From IMG/VR virus record IMGVR_UViG_3300042564_002819, positions 266,025 to 330,024 of that record: a stretch of 64,000 bases of DNA, one strand, 5' to 3'. Position 1 is the first letter of the stretch. Every line of letters starts with the position of its first letter. The position numbers were made by a program, and so were the translations under genes. The notes beneath the pieces are model-generated. The model saw only the letters and a list, made by a program, of their open reading frames with translations. It made no database searches and was not told the origin of the DNA. Positions 2,843 through 26,997 of the stretch are shown here, piece after piece. This DNA is from a virus.

Positions 2843-3175
2843 ATGACAAATGATGTATATAAACAAAAAGAACAACTCGACATTGCTAAAGTTAATGAAA
2901 AAATAAAAGTTGATTATAAAGAACCGTCGAGATTTAAGGTTGTGTTTTTAAATGACGACCATACTCCAATGGAATTTGTAGTTATGTTATTAGTCAAACT
3001 TTTTAAACACTCTGAAGAAACTGCACACGCTCTTACTATGAAAATTCACGAAGAAGGTTCGGGAGTTGTTGGAGTTTACAGTTATGAAATTGCCGAAGAA
3101 AAGGCCATAGAAACAATTTCTGTTTGCAGAGATAACGGGTTTCCTTTAAGAATTAAGTTAGAGGAAGAAGCTTGA
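2843..3175 (+). CDS. clpS: ClpS protease adaptor
   Basis: VVFLNDDHTPMEFVVMLLVKLF..ALTMKIHEEG matches the ClpS core (ILVNDDYTPMEFV). Confidence 0.85.
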   Translation: MTNDVYKQKEQLDIAKVNEKIKVDYKEPSRFKVVFLNDDHTPMEFVVMLLVKLFKHSEETAHALTMKIHEEGSGVVGVYSYEIAEEKAIETISVCRDNGFPLRIKLEEEA

Positions 3176-3699
3176 AGTTAAAAGAACTAACATACGAAGT
3201 TCATCAACGTGCTGAACGTACCGAATTTGCACGAAATCTTCTTAAAGGGCTTTCTCCAGAAGAATACCATCGTTATCTGTATAATCAGTATATGATATAT
3301 TCTATACTTGAAGATGCTGCCAAGCATGTATTACCTGAACTAAAAGAAATCTATAGAGCAGAACGCATTTATGCAGATATCAGAGAACTCGAACGAGAAT
3401 ACGCTATAGGCACCACACCCAGTCTCTTAATGCCAGTTGTGCGTGAATATGAAAAGCATATTATAAATCTAAATCGAGAAGGTATACTTGCTCACATTTA
3501 CGTTCGTCATTTTGGCGATATGTATGGCGGCCAGATGATTAAGAAACGTAATCCAGGATCAGGAACTATGTATGATTTTGATAACGTTGAAGAACTTAAA
3601 ACTAAGGTTAGATCAATGCTGTCAGATGACATGGCAGAAGAAGCAAATCGTTGTTTTGAGTTTGCTATTCAATTGTTTACGGAATTAACCAATGAGTGA
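3172..3699 (+). CDS. ho1: heme oxygenase
   Basis: TTG start; YEVHQRAERTEFARNLLKG and HIYVRHFGDMYGGQMI resemble the HO family heme-binding helices. Confidence 0.7.
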   Translation: MKLKELTYEVHQRAERTEFARNLLKGLSPEEYHRYLYNQYMIYSILEDAAKHVLPELKEIYRAERIYADIRELEREYAIGTTPSLLMPVVREYEKHIINLNREGILAHIYVRHFGDMYGGQMIKKRNPGSGTMYDFDNVEELKTKVRSMLSDDMAEEANRCFEFAIQLFTELTNE

Positions 3700-4372
3700 A
3701 GTTTGGAATCAGTTAGTCAATCTTCAAGATAAAATTATATCTAAACTCAACTCGTGTGCCACAGAAGTATACGAGCCTGGCATGGATAGATTTAATCAGC
3801 CGGGCTGGGTGAATAGAGTTTGGCAAAACGACACAATTCGTCGTGCCCATGTTGATGTGGTTGATGCAAGATCAACTAAAGGACTGTGGATGATGCATGT
3901 TTGTTTATTTCCACATTGCACAGATACTGCACCAATTTACGGGCTAGACATAATAGCAGGTAAAAATAAAGTTACAGGATTTTTTCACGATTTTAGTCCA
4001 ACTGTAGCACCTAATCATACAATGATTATAAACTTTGGAAAAGTTGTATCTGAGTATGACTGGAAAAAAGAAAGAGAGCTTCCTGACTGGGCTAAAGCTA
4101 TTTTTAGTCAGTATATGGTTGCTGTTGGTAATGTAAATACCAACGAAGAATTAGAATCGTTAATAGACTTAAGTCTTAACAATCTTGATGACTGGCTTGG
4201 ATATTACAGATACACAAAATGCACTTACGAAGAAGGCGCGGCAGCACAAAATCGTTATGCATATTATCAAAAACAAAATCCGCATACACCAAGAACAATG
4301 ACAGCTCTTGGACTAAACGAAGAAGATGTACAAGTTTTTGTACAGGAATGCTTGTTTCCTGATATAAAATAA
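3692..4372 (+). CDS. pebS: ferredoxin-dependent bilin reductase (PebS/PebA-like)
   Basis: 226 aa; RRAHVDVVDARSTKGLWMMH and C-terminal NRYAYYQKQNPHT match FDBR motifs; adjacent to ho1 as in cyanomyophages. Confidence 0.6.
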   Translation: MSEVWNQLVNLQDKIISKLNSCATEVYEPGMDRFNQPGWVNRVWQNDTIRRAHVDVVDARSTKGLWMMHVCLFPHCTDTAPIYGLDIIAGKNKVTGFFHDFSPTVAPNHTMIINFGKVVSEYDWKKERELPDWAKAIFSQYMVAVGNVNTNEELESLIDLSLNNLDDWLGYYRYTKCTYEEGAAAQNRYAYYQKQNPHTPRTMTALGLNEEDVQVFVQECLFPDIK

Positions 4373-4427
4373 TATTAGCATACATAGAAATGACTCCGTT
4401 AGTTAAATAATAATGGAGGGCATTCCA

Positions 4428-4883
4428 ATGAAAAAAATAATAATAATCGCATGTTTGATTGCGAATCCGGCCCTAGCGGATATCGTGTTTGAATTTAATT
4501 CCCCTGCTTTTAGCGGCAATGGATATAGTACACACGTTCTTACTATTGAACAGTTAGAGCAACAACGCAGAGATAAAATTAAAGCAGACGAGCAAGCAGA
4601 ACTTGATCGCATTGAGCGTGAATATCGTAACAGTAACGCTTATAAATTTCAAAACAACTTAGAAAGTCGTATCTACGCACAACTGTCAAAACAAATAGCA
4701 GATGCACTATTTGGCGAAGGCGGCACCATTACAATAGGAGAATGGGCAGAAGCAGAAACTCCATTCGGCGATAATATTCGTTGGATGAGAGATGTTGATG
4801 ACAGAATTTATATAGAGGTATACGACTCAAATGGAGAGTTAGTATCTAGCTTTGATGTACCAGTAGGGGAGTTTGCGTTCTAA
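4428..4883 (+). CDS. csgF: CsgF-like curli assembly component
   Basis: signal peptide, then DIVFEFNSPAFSGNG (compare CsgF TMTFQFRNPNFGGNP); GGAGGG RBS 7 nt upstream. Confidence 0.65.
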   Translation: MKKIIIIACLIANPALADIVFEFNSPAFSGNGYSTHVLTIEQLEQQRRDKIKADEQAELDRIEREYRNSNAYKFQNNLESRIYAQLSKQIADALFGEGGTITIGEWAEAETPFGDNIRWMRDVDDRIYIEVYDSNGELVSSFDVPVGEFAF

Positions 4884-5656
4884 TGAAAATACTATTATCT
4901 ATATTGCTGGCCACATCTATATTAGCAAGTTGTTCATCTACAGTGAATAGAATTGAAAGTGAACCGCCGCAGGTTGTGATCACAGACGAAGAATACCTAA
5001 ATGCACTTCCTCCTCTAGCAGGACCTATGGTAGCAGCAGTGTATCAATTTGAAGATAAAACAGGGCAGCGTAAACCTAGTGAACGCCTTGCAAATATCAG
5101 CACAGCCGTTACACAAGGTGCAAGTGAATACGTAATTAAAGCACTACGCGAAGTAGGCAACGGTACATGGTTTAAAGTTGTTGAACGTGTGGGATTAGAA
5201 AACTTGTCTAAAGAGCGTCAGATTATTAGACAGACCAGAGAAAGTGTAGGAGACGAAACTCCTCTAGCACCAATGATGTTTGCAGGACTAATTGTAGAAG
5301 GTGCTATAGTTGGTTATGATTCAAATACTCTAACAGGCGGAGCGGGGGCACGCTATTTAGGTATAGGACCGAGCACTCAATACACAGAAGATGTTATAAC
5401 TGTAACAATGCGTTGTGTAAGTGTGCAGACCGGTGAAATATTAACCAGCACGGCGGTAACAAAAACAGTTGTAAGCACTAGCACAGATATGGGGGTATTT
5501 CGCTTTATTGAGTTAGGCACACAAGCAGTTGAATTAGAAGTGGGCAACAGTCAAAACGAAAGCGTAAATCATGCTGTAAGATTGGCAATTCAAGCAGCAA
5601 TAGTAGAAATGATAAAGGAAGGTGCGGATAACGGTATCTGGACCATCCAACAATAA
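4883..5656 (+). CDS. csgG: CsgG-like curli secretion channel lipoprotein
   Basis: lipobox LASC; long collinear identity with E. coli CsgG (AVYQFEDKTGQRKP; KERQIIR; IVEGAIVGYDSNTLTGGAGARYLGIGPSTQY; VQTGEILTST; GVFRFIE). Confidence 0.9.
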   Translation: MKILLSILLATSILASCSSTVNRIESEPPQVVITDEEYLNALPPLAGPMVAAVYQFEDKTGQRKPSERLANISTAVTQGASEYVIKALREVGNGTWFKVVERVGLENLSKERQIIRQTRESVGDETPLAPMMFAGLIVEGAIVGYDSNTLTGGAGARYLGIGPSTQYTEDVITVTMRCVSVQTGEILTSTAVTKTVVSTSTDMGVFRFIELGTQAVELEVGNSQNESVNHAVRLAIQAAIVEMIKEGADNGIWTIQQ

Positions 5657-5695
5657 ACAGAGTAAGATAAAACTTACCAATACGAGGGCAAAAAA

Positions 5696-6529
5696 ATGAA
5701 AAAGATTCTAACCACAGTGGCTTTCTCTATGTTGGCAACAACAGCGATAGCAAGTGAAGTATATATTGATCAAGCAGGTGGTGCATTGAATGTAGATGTG
5801 CTACAAGAAAATGGACTTAACCGTGTTAATAGAGAAGACAACCCTTTTGATATTGAAGGAAATGACATTGATATTAACATAACTCAAAACGGCGACGGCA
5901 ACGAAGCAGATTTTGAATTAGAATCAGGGGCAAATAATACTACACTGGTCTACAGTGCCGCTGGAGATTATAACACTATAATTGGACAAATATTTGGCGG
6001 AATTTCAAATACATTTGATACTACTATTACTGGTAGTTCGAACGCTATTACATACTGTAGAGATTATACAAACAGTAATTGTAATGGTGTAATTGTTAAC
6101 AATACCACAACTACAGTAGAACTAATAGGTAGTAATAACCAGTTGAACTTTGCATTAGACAGTGCAGATAGCACTAATAATATAAAAATAGGACAAACTA
6201 CTCCTAGCGATCAAAACGTGTTCAATCTTACACAAATTTCAACAGCAGGCTATGACTCTGTAACTGCTAACATTGATGGAGATTCAAACACTACCGATAT
6301 TACTCAAAATACCACAGGTGGAAACAATGTAGTAATTATGGACATCATTGGTGGAAACAACGTATTAGCATTTACTCAAACTGGAGCAGCAGGTTATAAC
6401 AATATCACAATGGACATAACCGGAAACTCCAATGCATTTACGTTTGATCAACAGACTGCTATAGGATATACTTATATCACTGGTGTAGTTGCTGGTAATT
6501 CAAATACTGTGAATATATTACAGAACTAA
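5696..6529 (+). CDS. secreted curlin-repeat-like protein
   Basis: signal peptide; N/T/Q-rich with degenerate repeats GNSNAFTFDQQTAIGY, GGNNVLAFTQTGAAGYNN, GDSNTTDITQNTTGGNN (S/G-N-x5-Q-x-G). Confidence 0.5.
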   Translation: MKKILTTVAFSMLATTAIASEVYIDQAGGALNVDVLQENGLNRVNREDNPFDIEGNDIDINITQNGDGNEADFELESGANNTTLVYSAAGDYNTIIGQIFGGISNTFDTTITGSSNAITYCRDYTNSNCNGVIVNNTTTTVELIGSNNQLNFALDSADSTNNIKIGQTTPSDQNVFNLTQISTAGYDSVTANIDGDSNTTDITQNTTGGNNVVIMDIIGGNNVLAFTQTGAAGYNNITMDITGNSNAFTFDQQTAIGYTYITGVVAGNSNTVNILQN

Positions 6530-6530
6530 T

Positions 6531-7625
6531 ATGTGGCGTTGGTTTGGAATAATGGTTATTATACCTAGCATAGCATTTGCTGAAGTGGGCAGTATCACAG
6601 AGTTTGATGGCAATCCTGCAGGTGCTGTTCGTAGCAAAGAAGAACTTGTTTTTGAACAAGCAGGGTTCGGTGTGGAAATGCTAGACAAGTTGATTACTGC
6701 TCAAACTAATTTAGAAATTACATTTGAAGACGATTCAAAAGTAAGAATTACTGAACAAAGTGAATTAGTGATAGACGATTTTGTATATGACCCAAACACC
6801 AGCACAGGAAGTATGAGTATGAAAGTTGCCCTCGGCACTGTACAAATGACCAGCGGTAAACTAGCTAAAACTAGCCGAGATCGTGTAAGTATAAACACGC
6901 CTACTGCTAGCATAACAGTTAGAGGTACTGATTTTTCAATGACTGTGGACGAGTTAGGTCGTAGTCTGATAATTCTGCTTCCAAGTTGCCCTGACGAAAC
7001 ACTCAACGAAGACGAATGTCCAGTGGGTGCTATTACAGTTAGTAACGCAGCAGGTAGTGTATCTCTTAACGAAGCATACCAAGGAACTATGGTAAGCAGT
7101 ATGGCAATGTTACCAAGCGATCCTCGTAGATTATTGTTACAAAGATCAAATATTAACAATGAATTAATCATTGTTCCTCCTAGTGAATTTCCAAACGGAT
7201 TTGCTACTGAAGACGAAGAAGAAGAAATTAGAACAGGCCTTGATGTAGACTTTTTAGAATATCAAGAACTTAGCGTAAATTTATTAAACGACGATCTTCT
7301 TAACTTTTCACAATTAGACGTAAACAGGCTTAATAACAAATACTTGGATAACTTTTTAGATTTCACACCAGGCTTAGACGACAACGAACTAGATGAAGAA
7401 GAAAATACAATTTTACCAAACATACACAAATATCCATGGATGACATGGATTGCAAACGAAGAAAGCATATTTATAGACAGTGATCGCCCTCCTCACATTG
7501 CTGTTCTAAATACCAGGGCAGACACACACGGAACTTACAGTCTTACACAAGACGACTACGTTGCAAACGTTCAAATACAAGACGGTGGCGACAACATCAA
7601 TATTAAGGTGGTACAAAAACAATGA
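6531..7625 (+). CDS. secreted protein with FecR-like beta domain
   Basis: signal peptide; segment VRSKEELVFEQAGFGVEMLDKLITAQTNLEITFEDDSKVRITEQSELVID resembles PF04773-type strands; acidic C-terminus. Confidence 0.3.
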   Translation: MWRWFGIMVIIPSIAFAEVGSITEFDGNPAGAVRSKEELVFEQAGFGVEMLDKLITAQTNLEITFEDDSKVRITEQSELVIDDFVYDPNTSTGSMSMKVALGTVQMTSGKLAKTSRDRVSINTPTASITVRGTDFSMTVDELGRSLIILLPSCPDETLNEDECPVGAITVSNAAGSVSLNEAYQGTMVSSMAMLPSDPRRLLLQRSNINNELIIVPPSEFPNGFATEDEEEEIRTGLDVDFLEYQELSVNLLNDDLLNFSQLDVNRLNNKYLDNFLDFTPGLDDNELDEEENTILPNIHKYPWMTWIANEESIFIDSDRPPHIAVLNTRADTHGTYSLTQDDYVANVQIQDGGDNINIKVVQKQ

Positions 7626-9271
7626 AAACAATAATAAAAATAATCGCAACATTTTTTGTACTAACATTTGCCACAGCAGCAAACGCTGCAATTACAGATG
7701 GTAAATTTGGTATAGCACAAATATTTGACGTTCAATATTATTGGAATGGAACAACGCTTAATGCAAGCAACTTTATTGCTCCATACGATAAGGACTTCAA
7801 CACAGTAACAGCAACCTCCGGGCAGTATTTTGAATTTTTTGATTCAACAGTGCAACCGGGAAAACAAGGTCTAAGATTAATGAATTCCAACGGAACACTG
7901 GATCGTATTATTCATGACTACGGAGACATTACAGCACTAGGCTCCGGCGCCATATTTTATATCGGCAGCGGATTCTTTGGTAATGTTATCTCGACAGCAC
8001 AAGGTTATAACTATGGATCTAGTGCTTCGTTTACAAATATGGATACAAGTGTAGATTCAAGTGATTTAACAAGTTACACTTTCGCAAGTTCGCAGCCGCT
8101 AGCAGCAGGACAAAGTGCTGCTCCAGCAGGTCCAACTTATACTAACCTAAACAGTACTATAACAACTGTTTATCCAACTAGTACTAATACACCTGCAGGT
8201 GAAGAAGCCATTAAAGCAGTCGACGGCAGCGGCAGCACCAAGTATCTTAACTTTGACAGAGAAACAGCAGGTTTCACTGTAAAATTAAGTGCAGGTCGTG
8301 TGGTAAAAGCATTGCAATTCACAACAGCAAACGATTTTGCATTGCGTGATCCAACTAAGTTTACACTTTATGGTTCAAACGATGGTGTTACTTGGACAGC
8401 AATTGTACAAGATCAACCTATTACACTGCCTAGCGGACGTGGTGTAACAATAGATCCTGTAGTTATTACAAACACAACAGCATATGTTTATTACTTTATT
8501 ACATTCCCTGAATTAAAGTCAACAACAGATCCTAGTTGTGCTAATCCAACTACACAACAACAGATACTTGCTTGCGACAGTGTTCAGATTGCAGAAGTAA
8601 TATTCTTGATGGAAGACGGCGATACCACTACCAGCACTGACCAAGGTTCAGGAAGTGTAAGCAACCCAGGTCCACAAGTACAAGTACCGTTAACCAGTAT
8701 CACAAGTGTACAACAAGCACAAGTTGCAACAGCATTTGCTATTACAAGTGGCAACAATGTTGACTTTACTATTATAGGTAGTTCAAACACAGTTGACATT
8801 GAACAACTAAGCAATGGTAACTATGTATTACTTTACTTAAACGGTAGTTCAAACACACTGGATATTTCACAGAGTGGATCAAATGCTGATAGAAACTTTG
8901 CTGACATTAACATTGTAGGCAGCAACAACACTATGACATTTGAACAAAGTGGTAACAGCAACAAAACAGCATTTTTAGATATTGACGGTAGTTACGGAAC
9001 ATACAACATTACTCAAACAGGAACTGGACTACATCATTTAGATCTTACCAACGTCGGCGATGATGCTACAGTTACAGTATTGCAAGAAGGTGCAGGTAAT
9101 CATCAAGCAATAGTAGAACTAGAAAATGCAGGCGGAAACTGGAACTTCAATCTTACACAGAGTGGAGATACAAGTCAGCTGTATAGTCTTCCAAATAACC
9201 TCAGTGACAATACTGTAGTAAATGGCGTTTGTACTAGCGGCACTTGCAATATGACAGTTAATCAACAATAA
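7622..9271 (+). CDS. secreted curlin-repeat protein with central discoidin (F5/8 type C)-like domain
   Basis: signal peptide; C-terminal repeats SNTVDIEQLSNGN, SNTLDISQSGSNA, NNTMTFEQSGNSNK, TVTVLQEGAGNHQA, NFNLTQSGDTSQ; middle AIKAVDGSGSTKYLNF..KFTLYGSNDGVTWTAI is discoidin-like. Confidence 0.55.
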   Translation: MKTIIKIIATFFVLTFATAANAAITDGKFGIAQIFDVQYYWNGTTLNASNFIAPYDKDFNTVTATSGQYFEFFDSTVQPGKQGLRLMNSNGTLDRIIHDYGDITALGSGAIFYIGSGFFGNVISTAQGYNYGSSASFTNMDTSVDSSDLTSYTFASSQPLAAGQSAAPAGPTYTNLNSTITTVYPTSTNTPAGEEAIKAVDGSGSTKYLNFDRETAGFTVKLSAGRVVKALQFTTANDFALRDPTKFTLYGSNDGVTWTAIVQDQPITLPSGRGVTIDPVVITNTTAYVYYFITFPELKSTTDPSCANPTTQQQILACDSVQIAEVIFLMEDGDTTTSTDQGSGSVSNPGPQVQVPLTSITSVQQAQVATAFAITSGNNVDFTIIGSSNTVDIEQLSNGNYVLLYLNGSSNTLDISQSGSNADRNFADINIVGSNNTMTFEQSGNSNKTAFLDIDGSYGTYNITQTGTGLHHLDLTNVGDDATVTVLQEGAGNHQAIVELENAGGNWNFNLTQSGDTSQLYSLPNNLSDNTVVNGVCTSGTCNMTVNQQ

Positions 9272-9287: not shown

Positions 9288-9320
9288 AATGATAGGGCCT
9301 ACGGGCCCTATCATTTTAAA
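9288..9320 (+). terminator. rho-independent terminator
   Basis: AATGATAGGGCC-TACG-GGCCCTATCATT followed by TTTAAAT. Confidence 0.6.
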
Positions 9321-9344: not shown

Positions 9345-9683
9345 ATGGATTTAGTATACGGAATAGCATTGAGTTTTCATCTAGGAATGAACGAGGACTA
9401 CAATAATTTGCATCCACATATTCGTTTACAAAACGATGACTTTATTGCAGGTGCTTACTACAATAGCGAAGATGCATTAAGTGCTTATGCTGGGATTGAG
9501 CTAGGCAGCGGAAAATGGAATCACGAATTCGGTTTAGTATCTGGATACAATGAAAGCACTGTAATTCCTTTTGTTAGATCCACTTATGAATTAAATGATA
9601 ATACAATAGGTTATATATCGCCAGGGTTCGAAGATAACAACATTGGTGTAGTATTAGGCATAGAATTTCAAATTAAAAAATGA
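9345..9683 (+). CDS. hypothetical small protein (possible outer-membrane beta-strand protein)
   Basis: alternating aromatic/hydrophobic pattern, C-terminal GIEFQIKK. Confidence 0.3.
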   Translation: MDLVYGIALSFHLGMNEDYNNLHPHIRLQNDDFIAGAYYNSEDALSAYAGIELGSGKWNHEFGLVSGYNESTVIPFVRSTYELNDNTIGYISPGFEDNNIGVVLGIEFQIKK

Positions 9684-9926: not shown

Positions 9927-11966
9927 ATGAAAAAATTACTGTTATCGCCTGTTTGGAGCATTTTAGTATTAGTATTGTTGGCTTGGCTACAGTTTGCTAA
10001 TCCTAGTTTTTTAGAAAGTCTACAGCTACGTTACTTTGACCAACTTATAGTAAATCAAGAACCTGTAGCTAACAACGTTTACACAGTAAACATAGACGAA
10101 GCAAGTTTAAAGGCAAACGGACAATGGCCGTGGCCAAGAGGCGAATACGCCAAACTCATCGAAGAACTATATGCACGTGGTGCAGGATTAGTTGTGTTCA
10201 ACGTTCTAATGAGTGAAACAGATCGTGCAGGACAAGATGGCGTATTATCTACCACAATGAGCAACTATCCTGTTATAGTTACAATGTTGGGTACAGAGGA
10301 AAACAAAAATGAACCAATCAATCCTGGTGCTAGTATTATTAATAGCGACTACATCGATCTTATTCCTTCCGTGCCTGGCATCACAGCAAACGTGTCAGAT
10401 ATTGAACGTGCGGCTGTTGGATCAGGAATTGTTAACACTTTTCCAGAAATAGACGGTGTTACAAGACGTGCTCCACTAATACTAGAAAGCGGTGGAATAC
10501 TGTATCCTAACGTTACTATGGAAGTGCTTCGTGTTCTTGCCGGCGATCCAAGTTTCCAAATTAAACTGTCACCAATTGGTATAGACAAACTTCGTATTCC
10601 ACAGTATGGTGTATTACAAACAGATGAAATCGGCAGAGTTTGGTTAGATTGGAGTCAAAATTTTTCCAGTTACAGTGCTGCTGAGTTGCCCGATGATTTT
10701 GCAGGCGGTATAGTTTTTGTAGGACCAACAGCAGCCGGCATTACACAACCAATTGCAACAGCCGCAGGCGGTATTTGGCCGCATGAACTACAAGCTATAA
10801 TGCTAGGTACAGTGTTTAATCAAAGCAATATAAAACGTCCAGCATGGGCAACAGGTGCTGAATTGCTAGGATTTGTAATTTCTGGCATAGCTTTAATAAT
10901 AGCAGCACGTTGGACCTATGCGGGCATAGGAATATTTTTAATACTAGTTGGAACATCAATCGGTGGCAGCATCTATATGTTCTCTGCTTATAACTTCTTA
11001 CTAGACGGTTTTGTTCCGGCAGCATTCTTGTTGTTGGTAGGATTAGTAAGATATACTGTTAAGTTTGTAAGTGAGTTCTTACAAAAGCAAAAGATCAAAA
11101 AACAATTTGGTGGTTATGTGTCGCCTAAGATTGTTGATTTACTGGCTAAAGATCCGAGTGTAATAGAACGTGGAGTAAAGAAAAACATCTCTATTACTAT
11201 GACTGATCTGCGTGGCTTTACTCCTCTTGGAGAAAGTTACGGTGCTGATGTTGAAGGATTGCGTCAAATCATGAATGACTACATGGAAGCAATTACACAG
11301 CCAGTATTACGCAACGAAGGCACTATTATCAAATATATCGGTGATGCAAGTTTACATATAAACGGTGCACCATTTGATCAAGATAATCATGAATGTGTTG
11401 CGGTAAAAACTGCAATTGAAATGATAGATGCTGTAGAGGTGTTTAATGAAGAACTTAAAGCAAAAGGTAAGCCACCCGTTGGCATGGGTGCTGGTATCAA
11501 TACTGGTCCTACAGTTATTGGTAATATTGGCAGTTATAAGCGTTATGGTTATGACGTTTTAGGTGATAGTGTAAGCACAGCCGCACGTCTTGAAGGACAA
11601 ACCAAGCCCTATGGTGTTTTATTAATACTAGGACCAAAAACTGCCGAAGTAGCACGTCATTTCTATCACGTTGTAGAATTAGATCTATTAGCAGTCAAAG
11701 GTAAAACCGAAGCACTTCCTATTTACACAGTAATTTGGAGAGAAACACCCAACACTGAGTTTTGGCATCATCATGAAACATTCTTATCAGAATACAGATT
11801 AGCAAATTGGAAATCAGCTCTGGAACAAATTCAGTGGTTAAAAATTAATGGTCCTGTCACACTAGTCAAGTACTACGAGATGATGGAAGAACGTATTGCT
11901 GATCTATCTAAGAAAAAAATACAGCCCGGAAAATGGGACGGAGTATTCAGAGCTACAAGTAAATAA
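9927..11966 (+). CDS. CHASE2-sensor class III adenylate/guanylate cyclase
   Basis: N-terminal TM, then periplasmic CHASE2-like segment (NGQWPWPR); three further TM helices; cyclase core ITMTDLRGFT, KYIGDASL, GINTGPTVIGNIGS, GYDVLGDSVSTAARLEG. Confidence 0.75.
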   Translation: MKKLLLSPVWSILVLVLLAWLQFANPSFLESLQLRYFDQLIVNQEPVANNVYTVNIDEASLKANGQWPWPRGEYAKLIEELYARGAGLVVFNVLMSETDRAGQDGVLSTTMSNYPVIVTMLGTEENKNEPINPGASIINSDYIDLIPSVPGITANVSDIERAAVGSGIVNTFPEIDGVTRRAPLILESGGILYPNVTMEVLRVLAGDPSFQIKLSPIGIDKLRIPQYGVLQTDEIGRVWLDWSQNFSSYSAAELPDDFAGGIVFVGPTAAGITQPIATAAGGIWPHELQAIMLGTVFNQSNIKRPAWATGAELLGFVISGIALIIAARWTYAGIGIFLILVGTSIGGSIYMFSAYNFLLDGFVPAAFLLLVGLVRYTVKFVSEFLQKQKIKKQFGGYVSPKIVDLLAKDPSVIERGVKKNISITMTDLRGFTPLGESYGADVEGLRQIMNDYMEAITQPVLRNEGTIIKYIGDASLHINGAPFDQDNHECVAVKTAIEMIDAVEVFNEELKAKGKPPVGMGAGINTGPTVIGNIGSYKRYGYDVLGDSVSTAARLEGQTKPYGVLLILGPKTAEVARHFYHVVELDLLAVKGKTEALPIYTVIWRETPNTEFWHHHETFLSEYRLANWKSALEQIQWLKINGPVTLVKYYEMMEERIADLSKKKIQPGKWDGVFRATSK

Positions 11967-12007: not shown

Positions 12008-12343
12008 TTATGAACGACTCATATAAGCACTAGAACCAAAGAATGATGCTACTACACCAGCTTGTGCAATGTAGAACATACTTAAAATGTTGTCTAATGC
12101 TGCTAGTCTGTCAATACCGATAAAAGGTAAAAATAGTAAAACTGTAAATACAACCATACTAAGCATAGCAACCCATGCCATTCTTCTAAGTTGATCTTCT
12201 TTTTGATCTTTGTTTTCTAAGTCAACAATGCGTTCTGCTTTAGCAAGTTCTTCGTCGGAAACTACGCCATCGCCGTCGGTGTCAAACTTGTTAAATTGAC
12301 TGTCTTCTTGTAGTGTCTTTGGTGTTCTTGGTGTTCTTGCCAT
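12008..12343 (-). CDS. small membrane protein with EF-hand-like Ca-binding loop
   Basis: DTDGDGVVSDEE matches DxDxDGxxSxEE; two C-terminal TM helices. Confidence 0.5.
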   Translation of the reverse strand: MARTPRTPKTLQEDSQFNKFDTDGDGVVSDEELAKAERIVDLENKDQKEDQLRRMAWVAMLSMVVFTVLLFLPFIGIDRLAALDNILSMFYIAQAGVVASFFGSSAYMSRS

Positions 12344-12360: not shown

Positions 12361-12705
12361 TTATTTTTTTTTATCTTCTCTGCCGGTGCTGTTAAAAACT
12401 TGGCTACGGCTTTGATACTTGTTAATCAATTCGTCGAGTTCGTCTTTTTTGTCATCTGGAAGCGAATCTATGTGTTGTCGATATTCTAAAACCATTGTTA
12501 GCTTACTGTTTAAACGAATCATGTCGTTATCTAACATACGTACACGATCCACTAGTTTAATCAGCGTCCCCATTGTTTCACCAATCACAGGATCAATTTC
12601 TTCAGTTACCCATTTCCATATAAAGAAAACAAAGTAGCCCATTCCCATTGCTGCAATGATCGGAAATCCAAAGTCTTTAATAGCCTGTGCAATATCAAAT
12701 TCCAT
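12361..12705 (-). CDS. small single-pass membrane protein (paralog A)
   Basis: N-terminal TM DFGFPIIAAMGMGYFVFFIWKW then charged coiled-coil tail. Confidence 0.4.
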   Translation of the reverse strand: MEFDIAQAIKDFGFPIIAAMGMGYFVFFIWKWVTEEIDPVIGETMGTLIKLVDRVRMLDNDMIRLNSKLTMVLEYRQHIDSLPDDKKDELDELINKYQSRSQVFNSTGREDKKK

Positions 12706-12983
12706 TAGTCTCTCCTTGCATCGTTTTTGCCTTCGTTAGCAGCAATACGATCTATATTAGGTTTAACATTTAACGCATAACTTAATAGTGCATCTATCTT
12801 AACTAAATCATTATTCATAGTTTGAACACGATTATCTAACTGTGCAATAATATTTTTTAGAGTTGTAACAGATCCTGTTACTCCTGCTAGAATAAACTTC
12901 AATGTTAAGAAAACAAAACCGCCGGCTGCTAATGCACCGGCAATTGGAAACCCTACTTCGCTTACTAATTGCAAAAAATCCAT
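12705..12983 (-). CDS. small single-pass membrane protein (paralog B)
   Basis: N-terminal TM EVGFPIAGALAAGGFVFLTLKF; same architecture as 12361..12705. Confidence 0.4.
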   Translation of the reverse strand: MDFLQLVSEVGFPIAGALAAGGFVFLTLKFILAGVTGSVTTLKNIIAQLDNRVQTMNNDLVKIDALLSYALNVKPNIDRIAANEGKNDARRD

Positions 12984-13035: not shown

Positions 13036-13066
13036 TTGACAAAATGCTTAAATATACTACTATATT
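13036..13066 (+). promoter_or_regulatory. sigma70-like promoter
   Basis: TTGACA at 13036, TACTAT/TATATT -10 candidates, AAGGAGA RBS, ATG at 13081. Confidence 0.5.
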
Positions 13067-13080
13067 ACAAAGGAGACTGC

Positions 13081-14214
13081 ATGAACAATTTTATAGAAGA
13101 TTTTATTAAAAAAAATACATTTCACAGACCGACTTTAGTGTTAGATATAAATGAAGTGGAAAAAAACTTCTATAATCTTAAACGTGGGATGCCCGATGCT
13201 CACATACACTATGCTGTTAAAAGCAATCCGCATCCTGAAATACTAAAATGCTTAGTGCAACAAGGTTGCAAGTTTGATGCAGCATCGATGGGAGAAATAG
13301 ATGCTTGTTTAGAAGCAGGTGCAAAGCCCGAACATATCAGTTTTGGCAATACTGTAAAGCGTTGGCAAGACATCAAATATGCACACTCTATAGGTATTGA
13401 CCTTTTTGCAGCAGATGCAAGTGAAGAACTTGAAAAGATTGCAAATTACGCACCTAACTCTCGCGTGTTTATTCGTGTATTGATTGGGCAAACTGAAGCA
13501 GAATGGCCGTTATCACGAAAGTTTGGTTGCGATCCCCAAATGGTTCTTGAGCTAATGGGATATGCTACAGACCTAGGTCTTAAGCCAGTTGGTATTAGTT
13601 GGCACATTGGTTCACAAACAAAACATCCTGAAATGTGGTTCGACACACTAGAAATGATGGCTAACCTTTGGGATGAAGCCTGCGGTTTTGGATACGATTT
13701 ATCGTTGGTAAACATCGGCGGCGGATTTCCTGCATACTACGGTGTTGATATAACTCCGCCAGAAGAATACGGTAGAAAATTAATGGATCGTGTTCGTAAG
13801 CAATTTCCAGGTGCAGACTACATTATGGTCGAACCGGGTCGCGGATTAGTAGGCAGTGCTGGTGCTATTGCTGCTGAAGTGTTATTGGTTAGCAAGAAGT
13901 CATCCTACGAAACAGTGCGTTGGGTTTATTTAAACATAGGAAGATTTAGTGGATTGGCTGAAACCGAAGGCGAAGCTATTAAATATCAATTTTCTATACC
14001 AGGTAAAGAAAACTCTACTACAGGACCATGTATTCTTGCAGGTCCTACTTGCGATAGTGCAGATGTACTATATGAAAAGAACAAGGTTCATTTGCCAGTT
14101 GACCTTTGCAGTGGCGATCGATTTATTATACGAAACTGCGGGGCTTACACCAGCACCTACAGCACTATTGCGTTTAACGGGTTTCCGCCGTTAGCTGTTG
14201 TAGTTTGCAAATGA
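13081..14214 (+). CDS. PLP-dependent ornithine/arginine/DAP decarboxylase (alanine-racemase fold, group IV)
   Basis: HYAVKSNPHPEILKCLVQQGCKFDAASMGEI (PLP lysine region), GGGFP, EPGR, C-terminal CGAYT motif. Confidence 0.8.
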   Translation: MNNFIEDFIKKNTFHRPTLVLDINEVEKNFYNLKRGMPDAHIHYAVKSNPHPEILKCLVQQGCKFDAASMGEIDACLEAGAKPEHISFGNTVKRWQDIKYAHSIGIDLFAADASEELEKIANYAPNSRVFIRVLIGQTEAEWPLSRKFGCDPQMVLELMGYATDLGLKPVGISWHIGSQTKHPEMWFDTLEMMANLWDEACGFGYDLSLVNIGGGFPAYYGVDITPPEEYGRKLMDRVRKQFPGADYIMVEPGRGLVGSAGAIAAEVLLVSKKSSYETVRWVYLNIGRFSGLAETEGEAIKYQFSIPGKENSTTGPCILAGPTCDSADVLYEKNKVHLPVDLCSGDRFIIRNCGAYTSTYSTIAFNGFPPLAVVVCK

Positions 14215-14430: not shown

Positions 14431-14622
14431 TTGGTAAATAATAACATGAAAACGTATCCAGCTAATGAAATATTTCAAGACATTGAAAATGACAAAAACA
14501 ACGTCTTGATGAATATTCCTCCTGAAATTGCAGAAGAATTAGGATGGGTACCGGGAGACGTCTTGAAGATCGAAATATTAGAAAGTGGCGGCGTTTCTAT
14601 TTCCAAGGTAAAAAATGGCTAA
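14431..14622 (+). CDS. AbrB/MazE-like small DNA-binding protein
   Basis: 63 aa; [31 protein letters not shown] resembles a swapped-hairpin motif. Confidence 0.35.
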
Positions 14623-14830
14623 AGAAGATGTTATTGAAGTAGAAGGCGAAATTGTAGATGTTTTGCCTAACCAAACTTTTCGTGTAGAACTCGAAAACGG
14701 TCACAGGGTAACTTGTTACACTGGCGGAAAGATGAGACAATTTAAAATTAGACTCGTACAGGGCGACAAAGTTAAAGTAGAAATGACACCATACGATCTA
14801 CAAAAAGGTCGAATTATGTTTAGGATCTAA
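14615..14830 (+). CDS. infA: translation initiation factor IF-1
   Basis: 71 aa; [64 protein letters not shown] is near-colinear with bacterial IF-1. Confidence 0.85.
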
Positions 14831-22727: not shown

Positions 22728-22814
22728 GGTCGGTGGCCCGGATGGTAAGGGGATGGACTGCAACTCCATAGCACTGCACGACAGTAATCAGTTCGATTCT
22801 GATACCGACCTCCA
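22728..22814 (+). tRNA. tRNA-like, class II-type (long variable arm), apparent anticodon GCA
   Basis: perfect acceptor GGTCGGT/ACCGACC, T arm ATCAG-TTCGATT-CTGAT, anticodon stem ATGGA/TCCAT with loop CTGCAAC, 17-nt variable arm; unusual for Cys. Confidence 0.4.
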
Positions 22815-22818
22815 CAAT

Positions 22819-22895
22819 TGGTGCCGTAACTCAGTTGGTCAGAGTGCATCGCTCATAACGATGAAGTCGGTGGTTCAAATCCACCCGGCACCACC
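22819..22895 (+). tRNA. tRNA with CAT anticodon (Met or Ile2/lysidine type)
   Basis: GGTGCCG..CGGCACC acceptor, anticodon loop CTCATAA, TTCAAAT T loop, CCA encoded. Confidence 0.8.
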
Positions 22896-22900
22896 AAAAT

Positions 22901-22977
22901 TGGGACATTGGACTTCTTGGCGAAGGTCGCCGCCCTTTCAAGGCGGAGAAACGGGTTCGAAACCCGTATGTCCTACC
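22901..22977 (+). tRNA. tRNA-Glu(TTC)
   Basis: cloverleaf by eye; anticodon stem CCGCC/GGCGG, loop CTTTCAA. Confidence 0.7.
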
Positions 22978-23093
22978 AAAATAGATCAAGCCTAGTCGAT
23001 CTCGAAAATCACTAGGCCCGCTCCTGAGGATCAAGCCATCGGAAGGTTCGAGACTTCCTTTGCAGGGTCGTCACCTGCCAGGAGTAACATACA

Positions 23094-23178
23094 TGGGAGA
23101 GACGCCTCAAGGTGAGGCAGTGGATTGTAAATCCATCGCGGCAACGCACGGACGGGTTCGATTCCCTCCTCTCCCACC
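23094..23178 (+). tRNA. tRNA-Tyr(GTA)
   Basis: GGGAGAG..CTCTCCC acceptor; loop TTGTAAA; long variable arm as in bacterial Tyr. Confidence 0.75.
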
Positions 23179-23184
23179 AAAATT

Positions 23185-23260
23185 AGGGTCTCTGGTATAG
23201 CTGGTGCGTACGGCTGCCTGAAGAGCAGTAGGACACGGTTCGATTCCGTGGGGACCCGCC
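23185..23260 (+). tRNA. tRNA-Phe(GAA)
   Basis: anticodon loop CTGAAGA, T arm CACGG-TTCGATT-CCGTG. Confidence 0.7.
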
Positions 23261-23469
23261 AAGAATTATACTACCATAAACACGAAAGAAAATAAAATGA
23301 AACTTGATCCGGAAGAAAGAATCTTCTTGACTGAAGAAGAATTGAAGCGTATACATGATGCTTGTGCTAATCCACCGGAACCAACAGACTATGTAAGACG
23401 CTATATTAACGCATATAGGAGAAAAAATGAAACGAAAACGTAACGCAGAAGATTATGACAAACGCAACA

Positions 23470-23545
23470 TGGACCGGTAGCTGAGGTGGTTTTAGCACCC
23501 GACTTTTAATCGGAGTACGTGGGTTCGAGTCCCACCCGGTCCACC
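23470..23545 (+). tRNA. tRNA-Lys(TTT)
   Basis: perfect acceptor GGACCGG/CCGGTCC; loop CTTTTAA. Confidence 0.8.
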
Positions 23546-23665
23546 ATAGTTTTGATGATACACTGACGCCGCGTGGTTACGGCTATACAACTAGGCTTAT
23601 CGCAACCTAATAACCATAGAGGGTTGAGTCGAGGTTGAGCAGTGTATCTTTTAAACTATGAATAT

Positions 23666-23741
23666 TGTTCCATAGCACAACTGGTTAGTGCAGGCGACTG
23701 ATAATCGTCAGATCTGAGTTCGAGTCTCGGTGGAACAACCA
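23666..23741 (+). tRNA. tRNA-Ile(GAT)
   Basis: acceptor TGTTCCA/TGGAACA; loop CTGATAA. Confidence 0.75.
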
Positions 23742-23953
23742 AAATTAGTAGGAAGACAGCCAGTGGAAGAACAGGAATATTACGCACCGTGGGAATGGCA
23801 GCCGATCGAATTCATGCCTAACGGATGTAATGATGTTGTTGTAAGAGACCGTGAAGGCAACACTCGAGAATTGTGTTCATGCGATTACTGGTGGTTGTCA
23901 GCAGAAGATAAAAAGATTTACACATCTTTTAGATTTGTGTAATTTTAACATAA

Positions 23954-24029
23954 TGCCGTGCTTGGTGTAAGGGTAGCATACCGCACTGTGACTGCGTTGG
24001 AATAGGTTCAAATCCTATACACGGTACCA
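23954..24029 (+). tRNA. tRNA-His(GTG)
   Basis: anticodon arm CCTGCC-like CCGCA-CTGTGAC-TGCGT; TTCAAAT T loop; acceptor register and G-1 uncertain. Confidence 0.6.
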
Positions 24030-24041
24030 ATACAAATTTAA

Positions 24042-24635
24042 TTATTGTACTTTTTTACTTAATACTCTGTATATGTCGTTATAGTTATTTTTATATTTCG
24101 ACTCATTGACAATTTCGTAGTTATATAATTGGTTTAATACCTTTAAACCATGTATTCCATCTTTAGTATCTAATTGATTGCATGTACCTATTACATGATC
24201 TGACAATGACAAACTATAATCAAATAGTTCTTCCCAAGTATTATTATATGGATACAGTTCTATAATTACCATTTGATGTTTTTTAGTGTAATTAAAAAAA
24301 TCACATTTCATAGCTGTGATGTTTGGGTAGTTGTGCATTGTGTTAAACAGTGCTAGGGTGTTTTGTTTTTTTAAAAACTTATCCGCACAAGTCATCTTAT
24401 GAAGATCACGCAACTCTTCGTATGTTTCAATATAGTGAAACGTATCTATTGCAGTAACATGTGTCTTTGGAAATGAACGACAAATTGCCGCAGCAACTCT
24501 GCCGCCAAATGTGCCAGCACACAAAACGTCACGTATATCATTGTTTGATATATGATCGCAAATATTAACTATTTCCTCGTATCCAGTCCAATTTGGAAAG
24601 TCCATTAGTATATTATATTTGCTTTTATATGACAT
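24042..24635 (-). CDS. putative SAM-dependent methyltransferase
   Basis: glycine-rich motif I LCAGTFGGRVAAA followed by an acidic residue; AAGGAA RBS. Confidence 0.4.
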   Translation of the reverse strand: MSYKSKYNILMDFPNWTGYEEIVNICDHISNNDIRDVLCAGTFGGRVAAAICRSFPKTHVTAIDTFHYIETYEELRDLHKMTCADKFLKKQNTLALFNTMHNYPNITAMKCDFFNYTKKHQMVIIELYPYNNTWEELFDYSLSLSDHVIGTCNQLDTKDGIHGLKVLNQLYNYEIVNESKYKNNYNDIYRVLSKKVQ

Positions 24636-24691
24636 GTGATATTCCTTGTATAACTAAAACGTATTTATAAAACTTAAAATAAGAGAGATAA

Positions 24692-25123
24692 ATGATGAGC
24701 AAATATGACACATATAACAGATTAACCGAACCTGTAAAATCATTTGATGAACTACGCGGCCGTGCGTTAACTCGTGTTGAAAAAATCGGAAACGACGAAT
24801 TGCGTTTCTACTTAACAGATGAACATTATGTTCGTATGCATCACAATCAAGATTGTTGCGAATCAGTAACAATCGAGGATATTGTTGGTGATTTAGACGA
24901 TTTAGTCGGAACTCCGTTGCTGGTTGTCGAAGAACGTGTTTCTCGTAACGATGGCGGTACAGATGAACTGTATTGTGATTCATACACTTGGACATACTAC
25001 AGTTTTCGCACTATCAAAGGTAGTGTAGATATTCGTTGGTATGGAAGTAGCAATGGATACTATTCAGAAGGTGTTGACATTGACATTGTAACACCCGATG
25101 CAGAAAATCAAGTAGAAATCTAA
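24692..25123 (+). CDS. hypothetical acidic protein
   Basis: 143-aa ORF with AAGAGAG RBS. Confidence 0.4.
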   Translation: MMSKYDTYNRLTEPVKSFDELRGRALTRVEKIGNDELRFYLTDEHYVRMHHNQDCCESVTIEDIVGDLDDLVGTPLLVVEERVSRNDGGTDELYCDSYTWTYYSFRTIKGSVDIRWYGSSNGYYSEGVDIDIVTPDAENQVEI

Positions 25124-25192
25124 GGCCAAAGGCTTAGATCACATCAAGTTAAACTGTATTATTTCTATATACTGTCATTTTATAAATATTTT

Positions 25193-25705
25193 ATGAGGGT
25201 ATTACTAATAATAACGCTATTATTATCTCTTTCTGCTTGTGCTGATTTTAAGAAAATTCTTCGACCCGAACCTACACCAGAACCGATAAAAACAGCAATA
25301 GAAAAAGTAGGTTGGAACGAGCATCAAGACCGCAGAGAAATAAGAGAATTTACTGGTGTAGATCCAGTAAGTACACAATGGTGTGCTGCGTTTGTAAACG
25401 CAGTTCTTGAAGAAAATGGGTTACCTGGATCGGAGTTCTATAACGAAAATCCACTGTTAGCAAGAAGTTTTCTGTCCTGGGGTGTAGAGGTAGAAGAGCC
25501 CGAATACGGCGATATTGTAGTATTTGCTCGAGGCAATGAAGCTTGGAAGGGTCATGTTGGGTTTTATGTAACTTCGACATATTTAGAAGGTCAAAAACAC
25601 TACTTAGTTCTTGGCGGAAATCAAAACAACAGTGTCACATACAAAGCATATCCTACTCGTAGACTGCTTTCTGTAAGACGACTTACAACAGAAGATACTG
25701 AATAA
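25193..25705 (+). CDS. lipoprotein, CHAP/NlpC-P60-like (TIGR02594-type) putative peptidoglycan hydrolase
   Basis: lipobox LSAC; conserved Cys (TQWCAAFVNAV) and His (WKGHVGFYV) spaced as in Cys-His amidases. Confidence 0.5.
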   Translation: MRVLLIITLLLSLSACADFKKILRPEPTPEPIKTAIEKVGWNEHQDRREIREFTGVDPVSTQWCAAFVNAVLEENGLPGSEFYNENPLLARSFLSWGVEVEEPEYGDIVVFARGNEAWKGHVGFYVTSTYLEGQKHYLVLGGNQNNSVTYKAYPTRRLLSVRRLTTEDTE

Positions 25706-25718
25706 AATTTAGTTTAAT

Positions 25719-25795
25719 GCTCTCGTAGCTCAATGGATTAGAGCGTCGGTCTACGAAACCGAAGGTTAGAGGTTCGAGTCCTCTCGAGAGTGCCA
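25719..25795 (+). tRNA. tRNA-Arg(ACG)
   Basis: anticodon stem TCGGT/ACCGA, loop CTACGAA. Confidence 0.75.
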
Positions 25796-25804
25796 AAATA
25801 CTAG

Positions 25805-25833
25805 TTGACACTGGCATAGACAAGTGTTATTGT
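25805..25833 (+). promoter_or_regulatory. sigma70-like promoter
   Basis: TTGACA-N17-TATTGT. Confidence 0.45.
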
Positions 25834-25858
25834 GAGTGCAACAAGAAAGGAAATACAC

Positions 25859-26155
25859 ATGAATAAAATTCTAATTTCTGCACTTTTTGCCTTTGTTTCT
25901 ACTGCTGCTACTGCAAAAACAGTTTATTACCCCGAAGCTGCATGTAACGAAATTCTCAGCAGCGAATACAGCACTGGTGGGGGTGATTCCAGCTGGGAGA
26001 TGTACGAAATTCTTTGCCGTGACGCTAATGGAAAATACACTACCTTTGTTACCAGCTGGATGAGTGTTGCAGGGTTCTTTGGTATGGGTCGAGTTGCATA
26101 CGAAGAAACGATTGACCTTGTACCCTACAACGGTACTACATTGAAGGCTGAATAA
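25859..26155 (+). CDS. secreted small protein
   Basis: signal peptide MNKILISALFAFVSTAATA; AAGAAAGGAAA RBS. Confidence 0.4.
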   Translation: MNKILISALFAFVSTAATAKTVYYPEAACNEILSSEYSTGGGDSSWEMYEILCRDANGKYTTFVTSWMSVAGFFGMGRVAYEETIDLVPYNGTTLKAE

Positions 26156-26156
26156 A

Positions 26157-26600
26157 ATGAAAATCGAATATCGTAAAGGCAACATGTTTGAAACTGACAT
26201 CCTGCATATTGCACATGGCTGCAATGCACAAGGTGTTATGGGATCTGGCGTTGCTAAGATTGTAAAAGAAGATTACTTTGATGCATATCGTTTCTACGCA
26301 GAACAGTACGACGAGCATGGACTTAAATTAGGAGATGTGCAGTTTGTTCCTGCAAACGGCAAAGTAATCATCAATGCTGTTACGCAGAATCTGTACGGCA
26401 AAGACGGTCGTCGTTTTGTTAATTACGAAGCAGTTGCAGAGTGCATGAGAACTATTAATAGTGTACTTAAGCAAAGTGGCGAAACTCATGTTGCTATGCC
26501 GCAAATTGGTGCCGGCCTTGGTGGCGGCGATTGGCGTGTGATTGAAGCAATCATTGAAAGCGAAATGACAGACATTCAACCTGTGGTGTATGTACTGTGA
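26157..26600 (+). CDS. macro domain (ADP-ribose binding/hydrolase) protein
   Basis: GNMFETDILHIAHGCNAQGVMGSGVA and MPQIGAGLGGGDW match Macro-domain glycine-rich loops. Confidence 0.75.
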   Translation: MKIEYRKGNMFETDILHIAHGCNAQGVMGSGVAKIVKEDYFDAYRFYAEQYDEHGLKLGDVQFVPANGKVIINAVTQNLYGKDGRRFVNYEAVAECMRTINSVLKQSGETHVAMPQIGAGLGGGDWRVIEAIIESEMTDIQPVVYVL

Positions 26601-26773
26601 CAACACCCTTAGCAGATCAGAAGATATTCTCACTCAATGATCTCATTGAAATGGGTCTTATTACACGTAAACAGTTAGAAGATCACATCCGATACATGGA
26701 AGCAAAACAGTTAGTAAAAGAACTGTTTCCAGGAATGTTTTAAAAATAAAGAATAGGTAGCCGCGACTACCTT

Positions 26774-26905: not shown

Positions 26906-26912
26906 TAATTTA

Positions 26913-26988: not shown

Positions 26989-26997
26989 AAAAAGCTG

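Follow-up and report, generated by a model that had tools for sequence, protein, structure and literature searches.

A divergent curli-type gene module with FecR-domain and CHASE2 cyclase genes in a large T4-like marine phage

The stretch of DNA analysed here, 64,000 nucleotides long (positions 266,025 to 330,024 of IMG/VR virus record IMGVR_UViG_3300042564_002819) and hereafter called the window, originates from a large T4-like marine phage. Five consecutive plus-strand open reading frames (ORFs) at 4413-9271 of the window encode homologs of the curli secretion proteins CsgF and CsgG, the latter a lipoprotein, a curlin-repeat protein (curlin 1), a secreted FecR-domain protein and a second, larger curlin-repeat protein (curlin 2). 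Phage curli modules are known from SAR11 and OM43 phages described between 2013 and 2022, and the window contains a new divergent member of this group. We lean slightly towards the view that these genes, together with a linked adenylate cyclase gene, constitute a working curli system lacking CsgE that would make adhesive fibres on infected cells and would be accompanied by a cyclic AMP (cAMP) sensor pair.

A preliminary description prepared from the sequence of the window had listed the same five ORFs, with export signals on every product, a CsgF plug motif, an unmistakable CsgG, two curlin-repeat proteins, one of them with a discoidin-like insert, a FecR-like domain and no composition break, and these readings hold. 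In Pfam searches the CsgF, CsgG, FecR and Curlin_rpt profiles were all matched, and F5_F8_type_C fell just below its threshold. Signal peptides and the lipobox were judged by eye from the translations, and all five proteins have signal-peptide-like N termini. The genes are tightly packed, two neighbouring pairs overlapping by ATGA (at 4883 and 7622) and another being separated by one nucleotide (6530), and the GC content is 0.34-0.43 both within and beyond the block, without a step at its borders.

The CsgG homolog matches Pfam family PF03783 with E=1.1e-51 and 175.6 bits (cut-off 20.8), residues 47-256 corresponding to profile positions 8-209 of 210, and aligns over its full length with E. 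coli CsgG chains 3x2r and 6l7a (E=3e-49), confirming the colinearity of the two proteins. Its lipoprotein signal, MKILLSILLATSILAS followed by Cys, contains the lipobox LASC, the Cys of which is shared by each of the 20 orthologues aligned. The CsgF homolog matches PF10614 (E=5.5e-12, 46.4 bits, cut-off 25.8). A phmmer search of PDB with this sequence alone missed E. coli CsgF and returned a chance match to a designed Kelch-like repeat protein, and for this reason a family profile and hhalign were required. The profile found the E. coli CsgF chain 6l7a_J (E=1.3e-3), and hhalign aligned the family to E. coli CsgF over 120 columns with a probability of 90%. The N-terminal plug motif F-x-x-P-x-F-x-G (F23, P26, F28 and G30) is invariant in 19 of 19 orthologues and follows a signal peptide with the cleavage site between MKKIIIIACLIANPALA and DIV. 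The ATG at 4428, preceded by a GGAGGG ribosome-binding site at 4416-4421, is probably the true start of this gene.

Both repeat proteins exceed the Curlin_rpt (PF07012) cut-off of 20.7 bits: curlin 1 with 22.9 bits (E=8e-5) and curlin 2 with 33.1 bits (E=5.5e-8), while curlin 2 orthologues reach 62.8-69.1 bits. Their signal peptides end in TTAIA before SEV (curlin 1) and in ATAANA before AIT (curlin 2). In curlin 1 the motif N-x-x-x-h-x-Q occurs at residues 174, 198, 222, 246 and 270, an exact 24-residue period; these five occurrences compare with 0.15 expected and with a maximum of two in 1000 shuffles. The length of curlin 1 differs among relatives by steps of 24 or 48 residues; such variation by whole rungs would suit a stackable unit. 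The repeats of the two proteins are homologous to each other (hhalign 97%, E=1e-10), and both proteins are predicted by structure modeling to form stacked strand-turn-strand beta-solenoids. The solenoid model of curlin 1 is confident, and its best structural match is a solved CsgA, which also has the highest sequence identity among the matches. Alignment by hhalign of both curlin families to a single E. coli CsgA sequence was in register and weak (probability 20% and 40%), a result consistent with the assignment but no proof of it. NCBIfam CsgA and CsgB models gave no match to curlin 1, and curlin 2 missed their equivalog cut-offs (CsgB 29.7 versus 165 bits; CsgA 20.0 versus 160 bits); therefore, the roles of major subunit and nucleator cannot be assigned to the two proteins.

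The AlphaFold2 model of curlin 2 comprises an N-terminal beta domain (residues 23-145), a lectin-type sandwich of the CBM32/F5-8C type (about 170-335) and a C-terminal solenoid of seven rungs (378-548). The F5_F8_type_C score of the window protein is 26.9 bits against a cut-off of 28.2; the assignment is upheld because orthologues score 37.8-47.2 bits and because the top Foldseek matches of the model are CBM32 modules, with TM-scores of 0.7-0.79 on the target and E-values down to 1.8e-9. Such a fold suggests that curlin 2 may bind sugars. The region preceding the solenoid contains F5/8C in the window and in loci L006, L007 and L021, and PA14 in Pelagibacter phage HTVC008M; thus, the predicted sugar-binding head varies by lineage. 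The second curlin-repeat protein of HTVC008M (L001, 10477-11802), annotated as hypothetical, has a PA14 score of 27.7 bits (cut-off 24). The shortest curlin 2 orthologues, those of L014 and L022 (228-229 amino acids, aa), have no N-terminal extension. The curlin 2 protein family has at least 961 metagenome members.

The repeat proteins could instead be secreted non-amyloid adhesins, that is, monomeric or surface-anchored beta-solenoids or a coat, with CsgG and CsgF acting as translocon and anchor. We consider this unlikely, given that the best structural match, and the one with the highest sequence identity among matches, is a true CsgA, that both proteins bear the curlin repeat signature, which reaches 69 bits in orthologues, and that length variation by whole rungs fits a stackable unit.

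The protein encoded between the two curlin genes contains a FecR domain (PF04773, E=3.9e-10) located directly after a cleavable-looking signal peptide, which ends in SIAFA before EVG. This was the only Pfam family matched, and no N-terminal cytoplasmic anti-sigma or transmembrane part is present. An iron or anti-sigma regulator of the E. coli FecR type was therefore ruled out, since of that regulator the protein has the periplasmic FecR domain alone. Its nearest named relatives are the Leptospira lipoproteins LipL45 and Lsa33, to which it has weak NCBIfam matches. In the alignment of 17 orthologues the C-terminal half (residues ~230-364) contains acidic Leu/Asp-rich repeats LDxDFLxxDxL. The terminus, GGDNINIKVVQKQ, resembles the last rung and the C-terminal Q-x(-x) end of both curlins; the idea of a curlin rung, making this protein a third fibre component, was dropped as evidence after hhalign paired it with the final curlin 1 rung at a probability of 3%.

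The linked cyclase gene encodes a protein with CHASE2 (E=1e-37) and Guanylate_cyc (E=2.5e-16) domains, and its best PDB matches are adenylate cyclases. Both metal-binding Asp residues, the ATP-specifying Lys and Asp, and the Arg are conserved. Cyclases of the window (11127-11966) and of L002, L003, L008, L012, L014, L016, L021, L022 and L028 share the replacement of VNLAxR by VSTAAR and, at the second of the specificity positions, have Asp rather than Ser or Thr. Pairing of the two proteins is known outside curli loci. In 13 bacterial loci without curli genes, a FecR-domain gene lies within 9 kb of a CHASE2 cyclase gene. A FecR-domain protein and a CHASE2 class III adenylate cyclase form the CyaD1/SMc02177 pair of S. 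meliloti (PMC5498481), and a LysM-FecR protein accompanies a CHASE2 histidine kinase in the 'BiofilmReg' biofilm operon of Burkholderia (PMC5192318). The likeness lies in a secreted FecR-domain protein encoded beside a membrane sensor with periplasmic CHASE2; unlike the window genes, these pairs are not linked to CsgG or CsgF, and the comparison provides an architecture but no ligand.

To define the extent of the unit, the window proteins were mapped onto 26 CsgG loci from IMG/VR and 80 genome loci collected with the FecR-domain profile. Each complete locus contains CsgF and CsgG together with a curlin (205-330 aa), a FecR-domain protein (361-382 aa) and a CHASE2 cyclase (about 610-700 aa). 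In most complete loci a further repeat protein (228-592 aa) is found, none being detected in L023, and in a few loci the cyclase gene is inverted or upstream. The module is kept across 26 viral loci, two isolate genomes and ten contigs of metagenome-assembled genomes (MAGs), and since the genes stay together at identities down to 25-50%, the set appears to be under selection as a unit. The preliminary description had closed the module at 9271. The gene set up to this point stands, but the end does not: the CHASE2 cyclase gene is linked in every complete relative, and a strong terminator follows it. Coordinates of all features are given in Table 1.

Table 1. Features of the curli-type module and adjoining genes in the window.
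Feature	Position	Strand	Remarks
csgF-like gene	4413..4883	+	Pfam CsgF PF10614; signal peptide and plug motif; likely true start ATG 4428
csgG-like gene, outer-membrane lipoprotein channel	4883..5656	+	Pfam CsgG PF03783; start overlaps csgF stop (ATGA)
Curlin 1, candidate major fibre subunit, 277 aa	5696..6529	+	Curlin_rpt PF07012; signal peptide; N/T/G-rich; 24-residue rungs
Secreted FecR-domain protein, 364 aa	6531..7625	+	FecR PF04773, residues 57-141
Curlin 2, 549 aa	7622..9271	+	Curlin_rpt; CBM32/F5-8C domain; signal peptide
Terminator-like hairpin 3' of curlin 2 gene	9288..9315	+	Folding free energy -21.5 kcal/mol; weak U tail
Small ORF, 112 aa, without signal peptide	9345..9683	+	Match to phrog_3600 (annotated PagP)
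Small lysine-rich ORF, 79 aa	9680..9919	+	Close relatives only
CHASE2 sensor and class III adenylate cyclase, 679 aa	9927..11966	+	Pfam CHASE2, Guanylate_cyc
Intrinsic terminator-like hairpin with U tail, straddling the cyclase stop codon	11961..11988	+	12-bp stem; folding free energy -17.6 kcal/mol
Two tandem paralogues, 114 and 92 aa, N-terminal membrane helix and coiled coil	12361..12983	-	phrog_18771

The claim of typical phage terminators and promoters around these genes fared unevenly. Two strong hairpins were found. The one after the curlin 2 gene (z=-5.9, with none of 200 shuffles as stable) may be an attenuator; the other, at the end of the cyclase gene, has z=-6.1. Matches to a sigma-70-like promoter numbered 39 against 35.3 +/- 6.5 expected, which is the chance level, and typical promoters were thus not borne out; the T4 late-promoter motif TATAAATA was not found on the plus strand upstream of the module. 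Antisense ORFs within the block, such as 6701-7171 on the minus strand, lie inside well-supported genes.

Two small ORFs separate the curlin 2 and cyclase genes. The first has homologs in the same place in L007, L008, L013, L014 and L033; it has no Pfam or NCBIfam match, shows an alternating beta-strand pattern and matches the C-terminal part of phrog_3600 (PagP, lipid A acylation; E=3e-9). It could be an outer-membrane barrel fragment or a new small protein. The second has homologs in L006 and L007 (81-84% identity), as well as weak ones in L015 and L016, and no family match in Pfam, NCBIfam or PHROGs. Most viral loci carry relatives of the phrog_18771 paralogues beside the module, whereas the bacterial locus L039 described below lacks them. 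Tandem genes of this family are located upstream of csgF in L001, L002, L009-L011, L019-L020, L022, L025-L026, L029-L030 and L037-L038. No kinase domain is detectable in the window paralogues, and Pfam and NCBIfam gave no match to the 114-aa copy. By their position in other loci, they are probably the genes labelled 'HK' in a published survey of phage modules (PMC9599517).

The preliminary description had regarded the arrangement as undescribed, and this proved incorrect. At the nucleotide level, searching phage genomes with the block gave nothing, and a protein-level search was needed. Searching with CsgG, as the preliminary description had proposed, retrieved Pelagibacter phage HTVC008M (53% identity) and four genomes of Methylophilales phage Melnitz (48%). 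The GenBank records of HTVC008M (KC465899) and Melnitz (MZ577097) list the same order, namely CsgF, CsgG, curlin, a FecR-domain or hypothetical protein, a curlin or hypothetical protein, and adenylate/guanylate cyclase, and these modules have been analysed repeatedly (PMC7029224, PMC9004378, PMC9599517). A 'curli operon' was reported in nearly all pelagimyophage groups in 2020, with 'sibling capture' proposed as its function (PMC7029224). In 2022, a lysis-timing pore was proposed for Melnitz from structure modeling and gene neighbourhood (PMC9004378), and the full set of HK, CsgF, CsgG, CsgA/B, FecR, second CsgA/B and adenylate cyclase was found in myoviruses and podoviruses (PMC9599517). The latter study inferred an alphaproteobacterial origin, found the module at all 65 GOV2.0 stations, detected its transcripts and estimated its share at about 0.1% of assembled viral proteins (PMC9599517). 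Aggregation and superinfection exclusion, suggested as roles in the preliminary description, are likewise hypotheses already present in the literature.

The window agrees in gene set and order with this phage type VIII secretion system (T8SS) module from CsgF through the adenylate cyclase, and it shares with pelagiphage and methylophage loci the presence of one or two small membrane-protein genes nearby and a T4-like marine phage background. Identity to HTVC008M is 49-53% for CsgG, 41-44% for CsgF, 40% for the FecR-domain protein and 35% for the cyclase. The window differs in several respects. The two phrog_18771 paralogues, probably the counterparts of the 'HK' genes before csgF, are downstream on the minus strand, whereas in loci of the HTVC008M and Melnitz type the small membrane-protein genes are upstream; two extra small ORFs precede the cyclase gene; and curlin 2 bears CBM32/F5-8C rather than the PA14 of its HTVC008M counterpart. 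The phage itself belongs to a different lineage, with rIIA, rIIB and 30 tRNA genes, and the metadata of its cluster list a longest contig of 330 kb versus 141-147 kb in the HTVC008M and Melnitz isolates.

Among bacterial systems, the csgBAC-csgDEFG locus of E. coli and Salmonella resembles the window module in its colinear CsgG lipoprotein channel, the CsgF plug motif and secreted Q/N/G-rich strand-turn-strand subunits. The window module differs by the lack of CsgD, CsgE and CsgC, by larger subunits that have rungs of 24 residues, conserved pairs of Cys and additional domains, by the absence of the constriction Tyr and by the inclusion of the FecR-domain protein and the CHASE2 cyclase. In Caulobacter, the CsgG-like outer-membrane protein HfaB works with amyloid-like anchor proteins. 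The NCBIfam HfaB model gives the window CsgG a weak score of 32.9 bits, far from its cut-off of 300 and from the 176-178 bits of the CsgG models, so that membership in this holdfast family was rejected, and no match to HfaA or HfaD was seen.

A bacterial counterpart of the module was found in marine Hyphomonadaceae (Henriciella/Hyphomonas MAGs). A Henriciella MAG (NHBW01000006.1, a 396-kb contig) and, independently, the interior of a 705-kb Hyphomonadaceae contig (CBFICP010000001.1) encode, in this order, CsgF, CsgG, a repeat protein of 504 aa, a protein with a FecR domain and a CHASE2 cyclase. The locus (L039) is flanked by a TonB-dependent receptor and metabolic genes, with uniform GC, and is clearly chromosomal. 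It shares the five core genes and their order with the window, with identities of 49% for CsgG, 37% for CsgF, 33% for the FecR-domain protein and 36% for the cyclase. It differs in having a single repeat protein, with a sub-threshold Curlin_rpt score of 14.9 bits, where the window has two, in lacking the small membrane-protein genes and in retaining the canonical Asn of the cyclase. FecR and cyclase genes were said to lie outside bacterial T8SS operons (PMC9599517), and the Hyphomonadaceae locus is a small correction to this statement. The next bacterial relatives of its FecR-domain protein among the matches are 39-47% identical, with none closer, so that either phage or bacterium may have been the donor. 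It is possible, though on balance doubtful, that the whole set is a self-contained adhesion device derived from, or shared with, marine Hyphomonadaceae, with sugar heads specific to each lineage (CBM32, PA14 or none) and with the FecR-domain protein and cyclase as native parts, not phage additions.

A working curli system of the window phage would operate as follows. Infection would lead to transcription of the co-directional, tightly packed genes, and the five products would be exported by Sec. Lipidated CsgG would form the outer-membrane channel, which the N terminus of CsgF would enter, leaving the C-terminal domain of CsgF on the cell surface. Curlin 1, secreted unfolded, would polymerise into a beta-solenoid fibre of 24-residue rungs, and curlin 2 could dock on it via its homologous C-terminal rungs and display the N-terminal domain and CBM32 head, which would let the fibre stick to glycans. 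As a pair, the FecR-domain protein and the CHASE2 cyclase may signal from periplasm to cytoplasm, with cAMP as the output. The outcome would be an altered surface of the infected cell, promoting adhesion or aggregation or shielding the cell against other phages.

Several observations weigh against such a system. Homologs of CsgE, CsgC and CsgH were not identified for the module. The constriction loop of CsgG has lost Tyr51 of E. coli and carries a one-residue insertion; the position of Asn55, occupied by Asn in the window, varies among the polar residues N, H, Q and S in orthologues, and that of Phe56 is hydrophobic (Ile, Leu or Phe) in window CsgG and its orthologues. Curlin 1 barely exceeds the Pfam cut-off, matched none of the solved CsgA chains by sequence and gave nothing significant in the Foldseek search. 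Curlin 2, with 549 aa and three domains, is a far bigger substrate than CsgA. Invariant Cys pairs are present in curlin 1 (C121 and C129) and curlin 2 (C537 and C542), and a conserved pair in the FecR-domain protein (C153 and C163); cysteines are absent from E. coli CsgA, and disulfide loops formed by these pairs might impede transit via a channel of about 1 nm. In the cyclase subclade of the window the transition-state Asn is replaced by Ser, the cyclases of HTVC008M and Henriciella retaining the canonical Asn. Finally, cells infected by Melnitz showed no clumping in cytograms or transmission electron microscopy (Buchholz et al., PMC9004378).

The pore proposed for Melnitz would have another function: CsgG, with or without CsgF, would be a gated channel similar to secretins or pinholins, and its opening, by depolarising or permeabilising the envelope, would set the time of lysis, with the remaining genes accessory or vestigial (PMC9004378). 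Besides the published modeling and gene neighbourhood, the absence of an encoded CsgE gate, the constriction loop unlike that of E. coli and the presence elsewhere in the window of rIIA and rIIB, lysis inhibitors according to PHROGs, are in line with this proposal. We nevertheless find it improbable, since an outer-membrane CsgG cannot depolarise the inner membrane, since the curlins, FecR-domain protein and cyclase are retained with CsgG and CsgF at low identity across lineages, and since the same set occurs on a bacterial chromosome, a setting in which the timing of lysis plays no part. An ungated CsgG might also admit nutrients or cofactors to the periplasm, with the FecR-domain protein sensing the cargo (PMC7029224, PMC9599517). 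The lack of CsgE agrees with such uptake, and a FecR-domain protein with a CHASE2 sensor could report periplasmic ligands; but the channel-narrowing CsgF is always present with its invariant plug motif, the secreted solenoid proteins are left without a role, and the FecR-domain protein has neither the anti-sigma nor the transmembrane parts of the iron-citrate regulator, which makes uptake very improbable.

The preliminary description had placed the module among ordinary phage genes, in agreement with the content of the window, which encodes rIIA, rIIB, an RnlA-like ligase, NAMPT, a NadR-like enzyme and thymidine kinase; the nearest isolates are T4-like Kyanoviridae. ARAGORN predicts 30 tRNA genes (31 by Rfam) in two plus-strand clusters at 22728-30874 and 55105-63777, a very large set beside those of HTVC008M-type phages. 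Two of the tRNA calls are odd, one at 58591-58666 having no determined anticodon and one at 63704-63777 having a four-base anticodon loop. Misassembly of a bacterial curli locus onto a phage, or a bacterial contig taken for a phage, is a negligible prospect even if curli genes are usually bacterial and bacterial MAG names are attached to several related loci: identical curlin 2 with the same gene order across both junctions recurs on at least ten contigs from independent samples and assemblers, GC is uniform, the phage genes named above are in the window and the cultured phages HTVC008M and Melnitz bear the module, so that chimerism is excluded for practical purposes. The ten contigs under MAG names (L029-L038; Pelagibacter TMED203, Luteolibacter, Legionellales, Caulobacteraceae, Polynucleobacter, Pirellulales and Bacteroidetes) contain a module of the phage type, in most cases together with the small genes specific to phages, and are probably phage contigs mis-binned into MAGs.

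Directly upstream of csgF, at 2843-4372, the window encodes ClpS, heme oxygenase and ferredoxin-dependent bilin reductase. The same trio precedes the module in L003-L005, L008, L013, L014, L021, L027, L028 and L033; the trio and the curli module co-occur in several lineages, and therefore both accessory blocks travel together. On the minus strand, 12008-12343 encodes a protein of 111 aa that has a single EF-hand calcium-binding motif (PF13202, E=4e-6) and ends in a hydrophobic C-terminal segment; HTVC008M, Melnitz and L022 have homologs of it close to the module. Further auxiliary genes (927-1157, 1166-2299, 2355-2789, 13036-14214, 14615-14830, 40405-41316 and 48891-51772) include those for GMP reductase/IMPDH-like protein, Hsp20, ornithine/diaminopimelate decarboxylase, ADP-ribosylglycohydrolase, NadR-like NMNAT/Nudix protein, NAMPT, ribosomal protein S21 and an IF1/eIF-1a-like protein, the last two according to precomputed Pfam labels of the near-identical contig L109.

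As a discovery, the module carries little weight, because phage curli modules are published, widespread and annotated in cultured phages. The window shows the module outside the classic pelagimyophages of about 145 kb. What is added here is minor and consists of the wider boundaries of the unit, the CsgA-like model of curlin 1, its length variation by rungs, the variable heads of curlin 2 and the Hyphomonadaceae counterpart. Since the latter occurs in relatives of cultivable genera, the link of the FecR-domain protein and CHASE2 cyclase to curli is in principle genetically approachable. The lineage-variable lectin-type head on curlin 2 predicts glycan-specific adhesion; if the heads are indeed lineage-specific in this way, each phage lineage would stick its infected host to a glycan target of its own, be it particles, algae or sibling cells.

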